From a virus, in the IMG/VR virus record IMGVR_UViG_3300036406_001149: a stretch of DNA of 64,000 nt; one strand, 5' to 3'. Below are positions 2,935-59,190 of this stretch, one piece after another. The position numbers and the translations under genes were made by a program. Position 1 is the first letter of the stretch; each line of letters opens with the position of its first letter. A model generated the notes under the pieces. That model was not told where the DNA came from. It ran no database searches and worked only from the letters and a program-made list of their open reading frames with translations.

Positions 2935-3147
2935 TTAACCACCTATTACTGTTTGGTCGCCAACTAATTGAACAAAAATACCATTATAGAATCTATTATC
3001 GTATTTATCTTCAATATCACTAATCGTTGGAGTATTTTTAACATATGTGTCTATTGTGGAATACTCTCCGGCAACTGTTGTTGTAACAACTGTTGTTCCG
3101 TTTTTTATCTGATTACCACTAATTGCTTTATTTATATCGTTTGCCAT
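2935..3147 (-). CDS. Hypothetical protein
   Basis: ORF track; abuts neighbours. Confidence 0.5.
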   Translation of the reverse strand: MANDINKAISGNQIKNGTTVVTTTVAGEYSTIDTYVKNTPTISDIEDKYDNRFYNGIFVQLVGDQTVIGG

Positions 3148-3156
3148 AAAATTAAA

Positions 3157-3474
3157 TTACCTTTCTATTCTATCTTCTAGTGCTTCTAAAGTTTTGCCTA
3201 ACATAGCAATTTGAACCTTTAATTCGTTCATAACTTCTGTATTTCTTTGTAAAGCAGCAGCGAAAGCTGCTTGACTTTCTTTTCCACTATTTAATCTTTC
3301 CATAATAAATTGTCTATCATGAACATATGGAGACTGTGTTTCTATCATCGCTAATACTTCCGACTTGCTTGCCATATTACGTCCTATAGCTACCCAAAAA
3401 CCCATCATGGTTACTACTATACCAATACTTGTTGTAGCAATGTTTTCCCAAAAATGTATAATGGTTTCTTGCAT
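3157..3474 (-). CDS. TM plus coiled-coil protein
   Basis: TM IATTSIGIVVTMMGFWVAIG, then heptad-like C-terminus; GGAGA RBS. Confidence 0.55.
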   Translation of the reverse strand: MQETIIHFWENIATTSIGIVVTMMGFWVAIGRNMASKSEVLAMIETQSPYVHDRQFIMERLNSGKESQAAFAAALQRNTEVMNELKVQIAMLGKTLEALEDRIER

Positions 3475-9111: not shown

Positions 9112-10224
9112 TTATGTTTTATAGATACACCTTATCATATCTTTGGCTACTTTATTCCAAGATAAATTTTGAGCCGTTTTTAATCCAGCTGCATTTGTTC
9201 GAATCTTGTTCTTATAAACATATCTCATATATTCAATAGCTTGGTCTTTTTCTTTTTCTCCAATTTTTGCCCAATTACCCGTTCCATGAAACCATTTTCC
9301 GTCATAAGCCTTTTCTAGTTCTGTAATATCTATCAAAAAAGCATTATCTTTATTACAAAATTCTGTATGGGCACTATAGTTTGTTGTGATAATTGGTTTA
9401 TTTAGAGCCATCATCTCTAACAAATCTAGATTCCATCCTTCTCCCCTAGACATAAAAATTCCACAATCTGCATTAGATGCAATTTTTGCTAAATCCAGTT
9501 GTGTAGGTAATCTTGGTATAATACGTATCTTATCTTTTAATTTAGAAGAACTATAATAACTGTGCCATTCTTCCAATTCTTTAGAAGTAAAGCAGGATTT
9601 ATCTGATGAACCTGCTATCCATAGCTGGACATTATCTGTTTTGTCAAAAGCACTATCAAATAATTCTAATAAAACATCATGTCCTTTTCTAATTTCCCAT
9701 TTACCAATATTCATAAAAATAAATGGATCAGAATCTTCTTTTTCTGTACAGAAGTTGTAATCAAAAATATCTGTATCTACTCCTAGATTTACTATTTCAA
9801 TAGGTCTATCAATGCCATTTGATAACAAAATATCTTTAGCCCATTGACAAGATACTATGAGTTTATCAGGTATGGATAGGTGTTGTTTTTCTAGCGTGCT
9901 TAGAGTATCTAATTCAAAAAATGGATAAGCTATATATTCGCCTGTTCCAATACGTTCTAATAAATCAAACTGATGCCAGATTTTTAGACATTTAGATTCT
10001 TTATTAATGGGTTTATGTAATATTTTTTGTAGAATTTCTTTATCTGTTGGGCGATAAAACTCCACATTTTGTAAACCTGCTATATCACTTTTTTGAGCAA
10101 GTATAGGGTATAGTGCTATGTCTACATCATTCGTGTAAAGATACTTAGAAAAATGCCATCCAGCATTACCGTATCCTGTAAAAAATACAGGACAATGCAT
10201 AATCAATTGTTCTTTGTTGTTCAT
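9112..10224 (-). CDS. GT-B glycosyltransferase (GT4-like)
   Basis: FMNIGKWEIRKGHDVL, SRGEGWNLDLLEMMA (ExxxxxxxE), PIITTNYSA. Confidence 0.85.
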   Translation of the reverse strand: MNNKEQLIMHCPVFFTGYGNAGWHFSKYLYTNDVDIALYPILAQKSDIAGLQNVEFYRPTDKEILQKILHKPINKESKCLKIWHQFDLLERIGTGEYIAYPFFELDTLSTLEKQHLSIPDKLIVSCQWAKDILLSNGIDRPIEIVNLGVDTDIFDYNFCTEKEDSDPFIFMNIGKWEIRKGHDVLLELFDSAFDKTDNVQLWIAGSSDKSCFTSKELEEWHSYYSSSKLKDKIRIIPRLPTQLDLAKIASNADCGIFMSRGEGWNLDLLEMMALNKPIITTNYSAHTEFCNKDNAFLIDITELEKAYDGKWFHGTGNWAKIGEKEKDQAIEYMRYVYKNKIRTNAAGLKTAQNLSWNKVAKDMIRCIYKT

Positions 10225-22143: not shown

Positions 22144-23301
22144 TTATCCTATACAAAACTTGTCACTGATTTGTGAGGCTAGGTCTTTAGCAGCATTAGA
22201 CAAGAATCTGTTATTGCTAAAGTAGAGAGGCGTTGAGACTTGATTAAGGAACTCCACGACCGTTTTTAAAAGCTTGGTCTGGGAACCGTCAAGATCTAAA
22301 TCTTCGCCCCCAGCGTCAATAGGAAGAGACTCAAGAGTGTCCGTATCGTCCTGCGTTACAGGGGATACTGGAGTAGGATCACCATAAGCCTTCTGAAAAC
22401 CCCCACAGAAAGGATGACCATAAACAGGCTTGATATTATCAGTACTGTTAGTATATGTTTCAAGACTTAAAGACTTCATCTGATTTGCAATATTTGTGGC
22501 AATATTAACTGCTACTGGAACTCCAGTAATATCAGACCTTTTATAAGCCTTGGCATATTCTTTAAACCATTCGTCGCTAGTCTTATTTGCAACAATATTA
22601 ACAACAGCAGACACTCCATCAAGAGCTTCTTTAAGCTGTTCAATATTTACCGGATTACCAGTTGATCCCGACAGAATACTGGTAAAATAAGGTTGCTTTC
22701 CTTCCCAACCCTTCCTCCACCAAGTATAAGGGATTCTATAAATCTGATTGATTTTTATAGCTCGGGCATCACCACCAAAGTGATTTACAAGCTTCTTTTG
22801 AATACCATTCCAATAAGTCTTGTGAGGATTAATATTGTTTTGGTTGAGAATCCAATAGCACTGATAACCATTACGAGTATCAACAACCCAACTTGGCTTT
22901 ACTGGAAAGTTATTAATCTGGTTCAAGAATTCCTTTTTCTTTTGCATGACAATACTAGGCTTAAAATAACGACCTTGATCATCTCGCCCAGCGTCCATAT
23001 CAACAAAACAAGCACGAATTCTACTAATAGCATACTGCTTACGTCCACCATTAACATAGAAGTAAGCATCAGCACCTTGACTATCGTTGGCAATAGCAAC
23101 AGTGGTAAGATGATCTGTATGATTCATACTACTGATCTTCTTACGAGGATCACCATTGTAGCAGAAAATCTGCTGACCACCAAAAGAATCAAAAAACTTA
23201 TTTCGCAAAGTAATCTGATCTCTTGTTCCAATAGCACTATGAGTCTTATCGAACGGATTAAAAGCCAAAGTATCACTAAACATTTGTTTTCCTTTTTCCA
23301 C
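22144..23301 (-). CDS. RepB-like (archaeo-eukaryotic superfamily) primase
   Basis: ACFVDMD (DxD), PSWVVDTRNGYQCYWIL, GGD...IYRIP. Confidence 0.7.
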   Translation of the reverse strand: MEKGKQMFSDTLAFNPFDKTHSAIGTRDQITLRNKFFDSFGGQQIFCYNGDPRKKISSMNHTDHLTTVAIANDSQGADAYFYVNGGRKQYAISRIRACFVDMDAGRDDQGRYFKPSIVMQKKKEFLNQINNFPVKPSWVVDTRNGYQCYWILNQNNINPHKTYWNGIQKKLVNHFGGDARAIKINQIYRIPYTWWRKGWEGKQPYFTSILSGSTGNPVNIEQLKEALDGVSAVVNIVANKTSDEWFKEYAKAYKRSDITGVPVAVNIATNIANQMKSLSLETYTNSTDNIKPVYGHPFCGGFQKAYGDPTPVSPVTQDDTDTLESLPIDAGGEDLDLDGSQTKLLKTVVEFLNQVSTPLYFSNNRFLSNAAKDLASQISDKFCIG

Positions 23302-23361
23302 TTCCTACCTACAATTTTGATATTGGGACAGTAAACACTACCGTCAAAAGCAATATCTTAA

Positions 23362-23443
23362 AAGATGGTAACGGAATCGAACCGTTATTGTACGATAGCA
23401 GAAACTATATAGGTGCTATCTTACAAGTTACCAAACACCACCT
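23362..23443 (-). ncRNA. tRNA-like / tmRNA-TLD-like RNA, 82 nt
   Basis: Acceptor AGGTGGT/ACCATCT with G3:U70; T-arm AACGG-TTCGATT-CCGTT; 12-bp central helix with a 13-nt loop in place of an anticodon arm. Confidence 0.6.
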
Positions 23444-23456
23444 TGACTATCAAGAA

Positions 23457-24326
23457 TCAATACTGATCATCCTCATCGTCATAATCTTCATCCTCATCCT
23501 CGTCATCATCTTCTTCGTCAAACTGATCCCAATAACTCTCGTCATAATCATTCAGATAATCTTCCTCATCGTCCTCGTAATCATCCTGACTAAAATCAGC
23601 CTTGTAAAGAGGCTTGAGCAATTCGCCCTCATACTCACCAACTACTTCGTAGCGACAAGTGCGAAGCTTTTCATAGTTGCAATCACTAGGGACACTGACA
23701 ACATCCTTGGGATTAATCTTGACGATCACAATGCGGTCGCCAGCCTCAAGACTACCATAACCAGCAACATAATTCAATGCTCCAGCATGAAGCCCATTAG
23801 AACAACCACGACCACGATCATCGTCTACCTTTGCTCGTTGCATTTGGCAGACCTGACCAACCCTGTTATCAAAAACTCCCCTATACTTATCCTTAAAGTC
23901 TGAACGAACAGCCTTATAAGCGAGGAAGAAACCATCCTCAGTGATAGGCAGATGCTCATGCTCCAAGAAATCATACAGTTCCTTCTGACTCTGCATACTT
24001 GGATTTTCCATGAGATTATTCAGGAAATTAACAAGGGGCTGAAACGGCAATCCCTTGCTCATAAACTCCAGAATACGCTTACTAATACTACCATGAACTT
24101 CCTCACCCTCGTAGAGAACCTGTCCATTCTTGATCTCTACAAGACCATCACTAAAAGTAGCAACAGCCTTTTGAATATCAACAACTTCCAACAGTTCCTC
24201 TGCCGTAGCAGTAGGAAGTCTTTCCAGAATCAACTTATAGTTGATATGATCCGGCAAAACCTGATAACTCTGGTTATTAAGAACCAGCGTCAAATTACCA
24301 TCCACAAACATAAACGGAACAGCCAT
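23457..24326 (-). CDS. rIIB: rIIB-like protein
   Basis: LYDFLEH..LPITEDG.FLAYKAV, CSNGLH, VKINPKDVVSVPSD, KLRTCRYEVV; follows rIIA. Confidence 0.8.
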   Translation of the reverse strand: MAVPFMFVDGNLTLVLNNQSYQVLPDHINYKLILERLPTATAEELLEVVDIQKAVATFSDGLVEIKNGQVLYEGEEVHGSISKRILEFMSKGLPFQPLVNFLNNLMENPSMQSQKELYDFLEHEHLPITEDGFFLAYKAVRSDFKDKYRGVFDNRVGQVCQMQRAKVDDDRGRGCSNGLHAGALNYVAGYGSLEAGDRIVIVKINPKDVVSVPSDCNYEKLRTCRYEVVGEYEGELLKPLYKADFSQDDYEDDEEDYLNDYDESYWDQFDEEDDDEDEDEDYDDEDDQY

Positions 24327-24373: not shown

Positions 24374-24401
24374 ATTTTACACTAATCGACAAGCTTGTCA
24401 A
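24374..24401 (-). promoter_or_regulatory. Sigma70-type promoter TTGACA-16-TAAAAT
   Basis: Spacer contains GTCGAT. Confidence 0.7.
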
Positions 24402-24422: not shown

Positions 24423-27098
24423 CTACTTGATCAAACTACTCAACTGAATCTTAAATAGGTCAATATTCTCCTGACTCATCTGCTCAACCCAATCCCTGCT
24501 CTGCTTTCCATAATATGAGCGATCTTCAATAATAGGATTCTGATTAGATTTAAGGTCTACCAGATTACCAGAGACTTGATGATTTCCCATAATAACCTTG
24601 AGCATAGGATTCTTGTCTACCTCAGTTTTAATCTTTTCCCTAATCTCAGAGATTCTCCATCTCTTCAAATCTTCCGTAGAAGTTCCACGGATAATCTTTA
24701 GATAAGCATCTGACTTACTATCACCAGCATACAAGTAATTAACAATCATTTTTGTCAAGGTGTTGTAGGCCAAATTAGCATTACGAATCTCCTTGCCATC
24801 AACATTATCAATACCAACCTCTTTCATAAGCTTAGAGATATGGGAAAGATATTCTGTTTGATTAAACCTTGGAATATTAAAAGGACTCACATGAACAGTA
24901 TTAGCAAAGAACTCTGTGAGCATGGTCTTATTCAAGCAATCCACAAGAGTTTTGTTATTAATAAACTTATCATAATCCAGACCAAAGATATTCAGAATAT
25001 GAAACATAAACTGCTTATCTGTTGTTCCGTGTTGATAATATCTGTATCCTCCGGTACTCCTCTCCTCTTCTGCGTAATCCTTCTTGCAATATTCAACAAG
25101 CTTGTTAATAGAAGCAAGATTCTTAAAGTGTTTTTGTGCTACAACTTTGAGTTGACGCTTCAGAAAAACATTGAAGTTAATAAGATTGTAGTTATCTTTC
25201 TCAAGCTTTTTAACGAAAGCTGTTTTGATAGCATAAATCTTACTATTGCCAATCAAGTCCTTGACTATGCTCTTTAACGTATCCTCTTGAAGAGTTCTAC
25301 TAATACTATTGATTTCTGGACAACCAGACTCAGGTTCAGTTCCATACCTCAACATGGGAACATAAATAATCTCATCTTGTTCCAGAAAGTTTTCTAGTTG
25401 TTCTTCTGAAAGAATTCTTAGATGCGTAGCATCATTATAAGGATTAGTAATCTGCTTACTATCCTTATCATAGCCGTGAATAAAGAATACGTCTTGGTCG
25501 CTGACACTACCGTTAGAATTTCTATTGTAAGACTTTCTTGGGCCAGAACTTTGTGTCAGATGCTTATAGTCTGAAACCTTGAGCAAATTTTCAGCCCCAA
25601 CATCTTCGATCAGTTGATCAAAACCTTCATTGCTTTTTGTATGATCCTTAGTGTCGATCATCAGATAAGCAAAGCAATCGTTAGCATTGCAATATCTTGT
25701 GAGAATTTTCTTGGCACTTTCTTCACTAGCAACGTCGCACACAAAGAAAGCCATTGTACCCTTTTTCTTCTGGTTATTCCAATAATAGGAACCTTTACCA
25801 GTAAGAGTTTCGTGATGGATTCTATCTGTCAGAGCAACTTGGCGACGAGAACGATAGCCAGCAGTCTTGTAATTAAAAACGTACAGACTCTTACCGGCAG
25901 GAATTTTATATTCCAAGTCATTGCCAGAGTTGATAGGATGATCTTTACCCTTGGGATCAGTCCAAGTTGCACCAACACCCCAGCCGCCAGCCAATTCATT
26001 CATAGTATAATATGAAGTAATTGCTTCTACTTTGTTCTTGGACGCTTGAATTTTCTTGGAGAATTCTTCCTTCATCTCCATATAAATTTCTTGGGTCTTT
26101 TTACGCAGAGTCTTAATTACGTCCTTAGTATACTGCAAACCTTCACGGGAAACATCCATTTCCAGTTCACCGATACCAAAATCAAGCTCAAGATATAGGC
26201 CAGAATTAAGAATCTCTCCCACAAAGCTCTTCCAAGAATCAATATCTGCTTTCTGGAAAGCTCTATTCCACTTCTGAATATGATCGGGCATTTCTTCCTT
26301 TTCTTGACCAACAATCTGTGCGGTCTGAACAGGATAGGCAATATTACCCATGATAGCTACGATACCACTATCAATTCGATGATAATTGCTGGGGAAATAA
26401 CTGTTGTCATTATTAAGACGGCAAACTCTCCAACCTTCACCACTGATAATGATATTGGTGTTGCTGTACTTATGATCTTGCAGATTATTCCCGATACCAC
26501 CTTCAAGGATGGGTTTCATGCGAAAATAATGGAAGATTCTCTTAGCCTTATCAGTAAACTCTTGAAAGTCATGCTGCTTAACAGCAAAACTAATCTCAAG
26601 ACCATTAGGCTCAGATGTAGTAGAAGTATTAAAAAGATTCAGAGTAGGAACACCACTCTCGTCAATCGCTGCAATGTAAGTATACTTCTTTCCGTTGAAG
26701 TATGATGCAGTAGTAAAACTCTTGGTATATGCGAAGGGACTCTTAGACCCTAGACCAAGACAACCAACAAAATCATTGCTATCATTCTTGTTGGATGCTC
26801 CGTAGGTTGTATACAAGTCCTCCATATCTTCCTGACTAAGACCAGTACCATAATCTCTCACAACAAAAGTGGGATTAGCAGCAGTGGGCAAAGTAACCTT
26901 GAAGGGATTCTTATTCCCGGCAGAGATATGACTATCATAAGCATTAGTAGAAAGCTCACGAATCGCAGCCATAACCTTATCAGAATAAAGGGAGTCTGAA
27001 AGGATTTTAAACATTTTGCTCGTCTGAGCAATATTAAACTGATTCCTGCTTGCAACGCCAACGCTGTGAGTCTCAATCGTCCTATCTGCCAACTTCAT
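24423..27098 (-). CDS. rIIA: rIIA-like protein with N-terminal GHKL ATPase domain
   Basis: ILSDSLYSDK, IRELSTNAYDS, VRDYGTGLS, GCLGLGSKSPFAY, NGLEISF, MDVSREGL. Confidence 0.85.
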   Translation of the reverse strand: MKLADRTIETHSVGVASRNQFNIAQTSKMFKILSDSLYSDKVMAAIRELSTNAYDSHISAGNKNPFKVTLPTAANPTFVVRDYGTGLSQEDMEDLYTTYGASNKNDSNDFVGCLGLGSKSPFAYTKSFTTASYFNGKKYTYIAAIDESGVPTLNLFNTSTTSEPNGLEISFAVKQHDFQEFTDKAKRIFHYFRMKPILEGGIGNNLQDHKYSNTNIIISGEGWRVCRLNNDNSYFPSNYHRIDSGIVAIMGNIAYPVQTAQIVGQEKEEMPDHIQKWNRAFQKADIDSWKSFVGEILNSGLYLELDFGIGELEMDVSREGLQYTKDVIKTLRKKTQEIYMEMKEEFSKKIQASKNKVEAITSYYTMNELAGGWGVGATWTDPKGKDHPINSGNDLEYKIPAGKSLYVFNYKTAGYRSRRQVALTDRIHHETLTGKGSYYWNNQKKKGTMAFFVCDVASEESAKKILTRYCNANDCFAYLMIDTKDHTKSNEGFDQLIEDVGAENLLKVSDYKHLTQSSGPRKSYNRNSNGSVSDQDVFFIHGYDKDSKQITNPYNDATHLRILSEEQLENFLEQDEIIYVPMLRYGTEPESGCPEINSISRTLQEDTLKSIVKDLIGNSKIYAIKTAFVKKLEKDNYNLINFNVFLKRQLKVVAQKHFKNLASINKLVEYCKKDYAEEERSTGGYRYYQHGTTDKQFMFHILNIFGLDYDKFINNKTLVDCLNKTMLTEFFANTVHVSPFNIPRFNQTEYLSHISKLMKEVGIDNVDGKEIRNANLAYNTLTKMIVNYLYAGDSKSDAYLKIIRGTSTEDLKRWRISEIREKIKTEVDKNPMLKVIMGNHQVSGNLVDLKSNQNPIIEDRSYYGKQSRDWVEQMSQENIDLFKIQLSSLIK

Positions 27099-27138: not shown

Positions 27139-27167
27139 AGTATATCATCGGCAAACCGTCTTGTCAA
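27139..27167 (-). promoter_or_regulatory. Sigma70-type promoter TTGACA-17-TATACT
   Basis: Spacer contains GCCGATGA (extended -10 TGn). Confidence 0.75.
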
Positions 27168-37345: not shown

Positions 37346-37353
37346 AATATAAG

Positions 37354-37699
37354 TGGACTAGGCGAGAGTCGAACTCGCGTCCAGAATAAACATCAATATA
37401 AATTTCTACATCGTTAGTTGGTTGTTATCACACTACCAACAAAGCTATCAGAATTATCTGTGTCAGATTGAGTACAATCATCATTCCCATTTATGTCTGG
37501 TAGGACTACCATATCCGATTATCGGAGTCAGCATGATTTGGTAATAAGGCTCATGCCGCCCCACTCGTCACCTAATTAGGCAGCGAGGGCAAGAGTTGTC
37601 TTGCCAATTAACAAATTTAATCGACTTTTAAACTGGCCGGTCGATTAACCAGTCGATGCTATCTATACCTATTTTACCTGTCGATACCTTTACTAGCCC
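37354..37699 (-). ncRNA. ssrA: tmRNA, tag peptide (A)GKTTLALAA
   Basis: GGGCTAG/CTAGTCC-A acceptor with G3:U70; T-arm GCGAG-TTCGACT-CTCGC; pk1 ACTGGT/GCCAGT plus AATCGAC/GTCGATT; tag frame 37605-37576. Confidence 0.93.
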
Positions 37700-59105: not shown

Positions 59106-59190
59106 GTTAACCCCGCCCCGCCTACTCTGTCGGCAATTAGCCTAGTTGATCTACGCACTAAGCGTAAACATTCGACGGGAACAGGGTTAA
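59106..59190 (-). ncRNA. 85-nt GC-rich structured intergenic RNA candidate
   Basis: 45 of 85 nt are G+C; long closing stem GTTAACCCTG.../...CGGGGTTAAC; internal TTTACGC-TAGT-GCGTAGA hairpin. Confidence 0.5.

Follow-up and report, generated by a model that had tools for sequence, protein, structure and literature searches.

A predicted non-decoding tRNA mimic conserved behind the rIIB gene in a large freshwater phage family

Introduction

In the window analysed here, the whole 64,000-nucleotide stretch of DNA from IMG/VR virus record IMGVR_UViG_3300036406_001149, the phage gene rIIB is followed by a short tRNA-like RNA, and the question raised by this locus is what an RNA of this shape could be doing at the end of a phage message. 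The window comes from a phage contig of 126 kb on which 12 tRNAs and one tmRNA were called. The element occupies 82 nt of the minus strand (23362..23443), directly behind rIIA and rIIB, which are regarded as anti-defence genes (PMC13716836). A first-pass annotation made from the letters of the sequence had placed it between rIIB and a primase gene and had likened it to the tRNA-like domain of a tmRNA without its message, in a genome that also encodes a full tmRNA. The latter was indeed found, at 37351-37699.

Results

The transcript expected to carry the element is that of rIIB (23457..24326, minus strand; phrog_609, E 9e-72; PF26926), whose product has a D/E/Y-rich tail. A sigma70-type promoter lies ahead of rIIB (24374..24401, minus strand; 11/12 match) and another, with an extended -10, ahead of rIIA (27139..27167, minus strand; 11/12), both being consensus matches only. 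The rIIA gene itself spans 24423..27098 on the same strand (phrog_612, E 3e-113). The earlier placement of the element holds on the rIIB side, where 13 nt (23444..23456, minus strand) separate it from the stop codon, whereas the gene on the other side (22144..23301, minus strand) is only weakly primase/polymerase-like (E 9e-5). Between the element and this gene, and starting 4 nt after U73, is a second hairpin with an asymmetric internal loop (23319..23357, minus strand). It belongs to the leader of the primase-like gene rather than to the element: its motif occurs in 156 loci, all of which (156/156) have the primase-like gene next, and in none of the 74 loci with another next gene. This leader hairpin is a candidate translational operator or 5′ stabiliser. 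A scan of 50 element types found no sigma70-type promoter between the element and the downstream gene. In a distant relative, a CsrA gene was observed between rIIA and rIIB (L502:1192-1389).

The minus-strand sequence and fold are as previously described, and RNAfold agrees with them, predicting a four-way junction for the 82 nt (nt 1-81 plus U73; z = -2.74; 2 of 200 shuffles equally stable). The 5′ strand of a 7-bp acceptor-like closing stem (A1-U7; 23437..23443, minus strand) pairs with positions 66-72 (23363..23369, minus strand), including a G3:U70 pair. A D-like 3-bp hairpin (23427..23436, minus strand) begins at nt 8 without a linker and holds an invariant GG (23431-23432) in its 4-nt loop. 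In place of an anticodon arm there is a variable middle arm (23388..23426, minus strand), which in the window copy is a 12-bp helix with one A.G mismatch (1x1) and a 13-nt loop. One linker nucleotide and a canonical T arm of 5 bp with the loop UUCGAUU (23370..23386, minus strand) follow, and the 3′ end is a U-run, U72-U75 (23360..23363, minus strand), that includes the discriminator U73 (23362) and is not followed by an encoded CCA. In the minimum free energy structure of a 160-nt region, the 5′ strand forms a competing helix with the middle arm, one that is weakened or lost in variants such as that of L001.

As had been anticipated, standard searches did not recognise this RNA: ARAGORN and Rfam (gathering score, E<=10) were both empty, ARAGORN with introns and a lowered threshold returned 243 noise calls of which none was usable for the element, and blastn against cultured phages gave no match. 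The element has no 5-bp anticodon stem with a 7-nt loop, and positions 8-9 (the U8/A9 linker of tRNAs) are deleted in all types.

Relatives of rIIB (74-99% identity) were gathered from viral, metagenome and genome collections and supplemented with pattern hits. The matches in metagenome-assembled genomes come from mixed taxa and appear to be binned phage contigs. The element is present in 246 of the 247 related rIIB loci that have enough downstream DNA, while a T arm of any kind follows only 3 of the 172 ORFs of this genome, which puts its occurrence far beyond chance. Many of the 246 loci are redundant records, and they collapse to 123 sequences and to 50 types at 90% identity; these types are mutually related, such that p values overstate their independence. 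In the sole locus lacking the element (L275), the beginning of the primase gene is missing too, and both were apparently lost at once. The element follows rIIB whichever gene is next, a primase-like gene in 172 loci and another gene in 74, and it sits behind the inserted gene where an HNH gene separates it from rIIB. Such an HNH-type endonuclease insertion was observed in 12 loci (e.g. L068:3870-4515, L092:336-968, L318); the start of the insert is buried in a hairpin holding a late-promoter-like word, and the L092 ORF runs into the D hairpin of the element. A covariance model search of 19 genomes or fragments gave one strong or moderate match each in 18 of them, further weak matches being tRNA-length, and the single one missed carries an allele of 45 nt, to which the model gives no score. 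In complete genomes the element is single-copy and never found away from the 3′ end of rIIB.

The pattern of substitutions points to an RNA whose fold is maintained. The T stem keeps 248 of 250 pairs over the 50 types although four of its five pairs change identity, and the loop reads UUCGA(U/C)(U/C) in 50/50 types (UUCGAUU in 42, one-base variants in 8). The D region, which had earlier been taken for a stemless loop, is in fact a true, covarying hairpin whose stem measures 2-5 bp and whose loop carries GG in every one of the 50 types (96.6% of cells paired), with stem sequences such as AGUC/GACU, CCGC/GCGG and GUU/AAC. In the closing stem, inner pairs 3-6 are formed in 88-100% of types, and the outer pairs in 39/50 (1:72) and 38/50. 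A MAFFT alignment of 30 types had 90.4% of cells paired, compared with 73.1% in shuffled and 44-57% in slid controls, and showed double changes in 13 of 16 pairs. The 5′ ends of the types had been set by the D-hairpin anchor, with five rows corrected by eye. A swap control gave values of 0.89 (own) and 0.56 (foreign); it is partly circular because the anchor uses pairing, and the MAFFT count serves as the independent check. Mismatch types in the T stem were G.U in 9 cases and A.C in 2, and it is therefore the sense-strand RNA on which selection appears to act. This bias, together with the 74 loci that have no primase-like gene next, ruled out a DNA-level origin or primase signal, which had been considered as a candidate.

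Judged from this covariation, we regard the element as real, under selection, and best described as a conserved non-decoding tRNA mimic. What the alignments show to be kept is the T arm, the D hairpin with its GG but no linker, and the inner pairs of the acceptor, the rest being dispensable. From the invariant bases we infer that the D-loop GG docks on the T loop to form a tRNA elbow.

The middle arm is the most variable part, ranging from 2 to 71 nt among the 50 types, and the element as a whole measures 45-115 nt. In the subtype of the window copy its helix is maintained (239 of 240 cells paired over 20 variants), while a long middle helix is absent in at least 7 types and several lack the arm altogether. 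A short motif that recurs in the middle loop is missing from many types and was hence judged non-essential. A second elbow, consisting of a T arm and then a GG hairpin, was found at the tip of the middle helix in 4 of 50 types (7/246 loci), with a few more by pattern. In L235, a loop-closed acceptor hairpin lies between the inner T arm and the inner D hairpin, whereas in the L206, L291 and L327 types the inner elbow has no acceptor, just a short A-rich linker. Over nine sequences the T stem of the inner elbow is 100% paired, with double changes at 2 of 4 pairs and an invariant inner loop. The two-elbow form probably arose through tandem duplication; an alternative description of L206 and L235 as permuted single elements was ruled out, since both are nested doubles.

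Element types are scattered over a tree of 61 rIIB proteins: no fewer than five changes on well-supported branches are needed for the double form, and rIIB genes that are nearly identical can be followed by different types (L259 and L261; L213, L291 and L327). The scatter suggests that alleles are exchanged in one slot, with recombination hitch-hiking or assembly chimeras as possible contributors.

The ends of the element were compared with those of 65 real tRNAs from ten genomes of the same phage family. A pyrimidine at -1 is present in 7 of the 50 element types and in 55/65 tRNAs, while A occupies this position in 40/50 and 6/65, respectively, and can pair with U73; since position -2 is unbiased, A-1 looks selected. 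G+1 is found in 12/50 types versus 49/65 tRNAs, and the outer five acceptor pairs are all formed in 24/50 versus 62/65. At the 3′ side, U73 is present in 46/50 types compared with 9/65 tRNAs (the discriminator is C in the other 4 types and a purine in none), and a U-run of at least four through position 73 in 38/50 compared with 2/65. The 8 nt after the last G:C pair contain a median of 5 U in the element types and 3 in the tRNAs (p 1e-9). The U-run is mostly of 4-5 nt, reaching at least 5 in 16/50 types and being absent in 4, and a terminator-feature scan flagged only the T arm. The missing CCA had been listed as a peculiarity of the element, and its absence stands, but it is uninformative, since 0/65 of the real tRNAs of these phages encode CCA.

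In 37/50 types the element starts 4-13 nt beyond the rIIB stop codon; in roughly one type in four the spacer is longer and often contains an extra hairpin. Intrinsic terminators consist of an A-rich flank, a G+C core and a U-run, and lie close to a stop codon. At the level of sequence, the ends of the element show a similar arrangement, 4-13 nt past the stop, and look like those of an intrinsic terminator. Behind distant rIIB genes (about 30-55% identity), about 16 of 22 slots, as judged by eye from the folds, hold a plain terminator-like hairpin, most with a U tract.

Other tRNA-like RNAs

Several further RNAs with tRNA features were observed. At G000:C1, about 9974-10057 and thus outside the window, is an anticodon-less tRNA-like RNA of the same layout with a longer D stem and a pyrimidine-rich middle. 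It lies in a tRNA region, 4 nt behind a 60-aa D/E/Y-rich early gene with a sigma70-type promoter and before a U-rich run. A homologue at L492, about 3144-3240, has the same setting and a D stem that differs compensatorily.

A multi-elbow phage RNA contains a pair of T arms, both with a GG-bearing D-like word behind them; it often lies beside tRNAs and is followed by a small GAAA hairpin. It was seen in at least L437:7430-7530, L438, L439, L442:4545-4640, L449, L451-L453, L458, L460 and L466, and also in at least L410, L416, L429, L357, L363-L365, L370, L391, L392, L402 and L405; Rfam gave no match in the 12 loci tested. Behind a distant rIIB (52% identity), after about 9 nt, L482:3306-3462 carries a tRNA-framed RNA, about 155 nt long, that contains a large insert, a variant T loop and U73 with a U-run; it likewise has no Rfam hit and was seen in one sequence only. 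L501:1300-1345, also a single sequence, is a minihelix of about 45 nt with a T arm that lies after a terminator, between rIIB and a rIIA-like gene, and has G3:U70 and A73; it is the one case here that carries alanine identity. Because model R1 fails to detect the L482, L501 and multi-elbow RNAs, they are treated as analogues of the element.

After another distant rIIB, L481:1690-1870 contains two copies of a hairpin-plus-possible-pseudoknot motif, with no Rfam hit. In the window, 59107-59190 (minus strand) matches the DUF3800-VIII RNA (40.7 against a gathering score of 40.2) with a 17-nt insertion; it was considered as a paralogue of the element and ruled out by its different fold. A conserved serine-type tRNA with a long variable arm (ARAGORN anticodon ACT; G000:C1 9040-9127; L486, L489-L492) adjoins tRNA-Asn in six genomes and has an unusual A34 or an 8-nt loop. 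G000:C1 3752-3826 is a tRNA-like gene with an altered, shortened anticodon loop and U73, called Ile(TAT) by ARAGORN. A conserved sequence element with a perfect T arm, a GG hairpin and no clear acceptor is shared by L110:10520-10590 and about 70 comparable prophage-like records (L112-L192), which are AT-rich isolate-derived contigs. L086:12659-12738 (minus strand), L088, L089, L106 and L107 have a tRNA-like element with the same D word, a T arm, an encoded ACCA and a poorly paired acceptor, away from rIIB, which the model scores weakly (24 bits). A search for close viral relatives of P0124 or P0125 for covariation found none.

Discussion

We tentatively favour, at somewhat less than even probability, the reading that the elbow mimic remains part of the early rIIB (and rIIA-rIIB) mRNA and provides its 3′ terminus. 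Host RNA polymerase would transcribe the element from the sigma70-type promoters ahead of rIIA and rIIB. The closing stem, with its A-rich flank, G+C core and U-run, could act as a leaky terminator, or as a stop to 3′ trimming after a cut in the U/A-rich trailer. As the scan picked up no sigma70 promoter behind the element in any of the 50 types, termination, if any, must leak, and a leaky end would leave rIIB mRNA in excess of mRNA for the downstream replication genes. The element would mostly stay on the mRNA because its 5′ side lacks what marks RNase P substrates in this phage family. The elbow would be the working surface, bound by host or phage factors that read tRNA shape; such binding would shield the mRNA end and may also titrate these factors, a second elbow providing a second site. 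The element would be neither aminoacylated nor used in decoding.

Ranked first, this retained 3′ end accounts for the position behind rIIB, for the end features and for the tolerance of almost any middle arm. It is also supported by the conservation of the elbow itself, by the inner elbows, which have no free ends and yet are maintained through compensatory changes, and by the second element of the same layout after another early acidic gene, in this genome and one relative. Against it, the U-run is short, a four-way junction is atypical for a terminator, and termination by itself needs no elbow. Furthermore, RNase P accepts A-1 in some bacteria (PMC11143913), the mascRNA discriminator is also U, and the extra hairpin in the types with longer spacers would protect an RNase P-cut end. 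The end features thus suggest that efficient RNase P cleavage at the 5′ side is disfavoured, and some cleavage by RNase P may still occur.

A somewhat less probable explanation is tRNA punctuation, in which host RNase P would cut at +1 and RNase Z (or RNase E with trimming) after U73. These cuts would detach rIIB from the mRNA that follows and set free a by-product like mascRNA, while the second hairpin would protect the new 5′ end of the primase-like mRNA. The layout is that of mascRNA and menRNA, which are RNase P/Z products, and t-elements operate in this way (PMC1920247). The conserved T-arm/acceptor stack and elbow are the parts that RNase P measures (PMC4919913), the U74/U75 trailers resemble those of phage tRNAs, the second hairpin starts only 4 nt past U73, and some types have a protective upstream hairpin. 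However, the 5′ features are opposite to those of the same phages' tRNAs, -1 pairs with 73 in 40/50 types, and the outer acceptor is frayed in half of the types. An RNase P cut at +1 would also mean that most rIIB mRNAs end in a bare, unstructured tail of 4-13 nt, at the place where a protective stem is retained in other phages. Finally, the acceptor-less inner elbow of L206, L291 and L327 cannot mark a tRNA-type cut and is nevertheless conserved, which counts against a cutting signal. Punctuation, ranked second, would account for the elbow while leaving the end features and the inner elbow unexplained.

We consider it unlikely, though not negligibly so, that the element is chiefly a trans-acting decoy, an early, high-copy small RNA derived from the 3′ UTR that would soak up a host defence effector or sensor reading the elbow or top half of tRNAs, alongside or bound to rIIA/rIIB. 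The anti-defence role of the rII genes (PMC13716836) is in keeping with this, as are the two-elbow alleles, the scatter of types over the rIIB tree as for exchanged alleles, the tRNA-shaped RNAs directly behind rIIB in two unrelated lineages (L482, L501), and the many other phages with multi-elbow RNAs absent from Rfam. On the other hand, the element never occurs away from the rIIB 3′ end, is single-copy in complete genomes and has no promoter of its own; no partner gene was found, Ro60/TROVE being absent from the five complete genomes; and plain recombination or assembly chimeras could explain the tree scatter. The version of a decoy in the first-pass annotation, aimed at anticodon nucleases, does not survive, because some alleles lack any loop at the anticodon position, the middle arm being as short as 2 nt and without a conserved loop. 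A decoy for elbow-binding factors is possible. The readings as a 3′ end, as punctuation and as a decoy are partly compatible and not fully exclusive.

A more speculative proposal, which we rate as doubtful, is that this is a slot for interchangeable elbow-display RNAs, from a 45-nt minimal to a 115-nt two-elbow form, fused to the rII anti-defence message. These would be non-chargeable and resistant to tRNA maturation and would serve as ligands of, or decoys for, an elbow-reading immune factor or rIIA/rIIB.

The original reading, a message-less tmRNA tRNA-like domain that is alanylated via G3:U70, bound by SmpB/EF-Tu and active as a ribosome-rescue RNA or a sponge for AlaRS, SmpB or EF-Tu, now seems very improbable. 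A tmRNA requires G3:U70, A73 and a stemless D loop (PMC3968760). The window copy does have G3:U70 and a long helix beside the T arm. However, pair 3:70 changes even in its own subtype (G:U in 24, A:U in 3 and G:C in 1), and over the whole set G3:U70 occurs in only 6/50 types (29/123 sequences), A73 in 0/50, both together in 0/123 and G1:C72 in 7/50; the D stem covaries, the helix is missing in at least 7 types, and the phage already encodes its own tmRNA. Equally improbable is that the element is an ordinary tRNA gene in decay or interrupted by an intron, or what is left of an attP site: real phage tRNAs carry similar D-arm words, making tRNA descent probable, and the acceptor is frayed, but conservation in 246/247 loci with compensatory changes in every helix, including both acceptor strands, no anticodon loop or splice motif, a middle of down to 2 nt and the deletion of positions 8-9 throughout speak against this reading.

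The element is an uncatalogued, near-universal RNA in a large freshwater phage family, in which the mascRNA design appears to have been reached independently, and its natural deletion series defines the smallest tRNA elbow, of about 45 nt. Should the element end or cut the rIIB message, it would represent phage mRNA end formation without counterpart in the literature searched. Should its elbow instead act as a decoy or pair up with rIIA/rIIB, it would bear on the long-open question of rII protein action and on anticodon-less phage RNAs such as T4 RNAC. If the proposed slot for display RNAs is real, rII function would include an RNA arm, and the element would exemplify a broader group of phage elbow RNAs that is not yet catalogued. 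In each case, the natural alleles are ready-made test constructs.

Comparison with known systems

A literature search, chiefly of freely accessible papers, found no description of an elbow element behind rIIB. Intrinsic terminators behind the rIIB genes of Paride, Xoo-sp13, XacN1, SJ3, PA15 and others share its slot, A-rich 5′ flank, G+C core, U-run and short stop-to-stem distance, but in the element the place of the “loop” is taken by a tRNA body of 40-100 nt whose elbow is invariant, and the U-run is shorter. The tmRNA tRNA-like domain (RF00023) has a T arm and a reduced D region in common with it, as well as the G3:U70 of the window's subtype; in the element, G3:U70/A73 are unconserved, a D stem is present, the P2-equivalent helix is dispensable and there is no message domain.

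Among phage RNAs, T4 RNAC (species 1 RNA, rnaC), whose role is unknown (PMC3014915), also combines a T arm and a closing stem with the lack of an anticodon arm. Unlike the element, it is 139 nt long, late and located in a tRNA cluster (PMC9697503) rather than at the rIIB end, has no D hairpin of this kind and shows no sequence match. YrlA and other bacterial and phage Y RNAs (PMC4201824) resemble the inner module of the two-elbow alleles in its permuted T-(closed acceptor)-D order, which is fullest in L235. The window copy, in contrast, is unpermuted and without an Rfam hit, and most inner modules have no acceptor hairpin. A Ro60 (TROVE) gene was found in 0/5 complete genomes, with positive controls.

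In plant mitochondria, the t-elements of mRNAs (Forner et al., 2007; PMC1920247) are likewise non-decoding tRNA-like folds with a perfect T arm at an mRNA junction and are involved in mRNA end formation. Their ends are mapped cut sites, however, whereas the end features of the phage element argue against efficient 5′ cleavage, and the D-loop GG is far more strongly conserved in the element. The closest likeness is to mascRNA and menRNA, the tRNA-like RNAs from the 3′ ends of MALAT1 and NEAT1, which share the acceptor at 1-7, the linker-less D hairpin from nt 8, a variable helix in place of the anticodon arm, the T arm, the D-loop GG, the U discriminator and a location at the 3′ end of a longer transcript. 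In the mascRNA structure, the T arm and two Gs rebuild the tRNA elbow without linker residues (PMC11693755). The phage element differs in having no Rfam match (E<=10) and no upstream triple helix, in its A+1, A-1, frayed stem and U-run, and in a middle arm of 2-71 nt that sometimes holds a second elbow; it belongs to a phage with a bacterial host rather than to an animal lncRNA. Nor do its ends generally resemble those of the RNase P substrates of its own phages (pyrimidine at -1, G+1, intact 1:72 pair), a suggestive difference. By the features tested, the element is therefore best described as like mascRNA or a t-element in its predicted design, yet a member of neither group.
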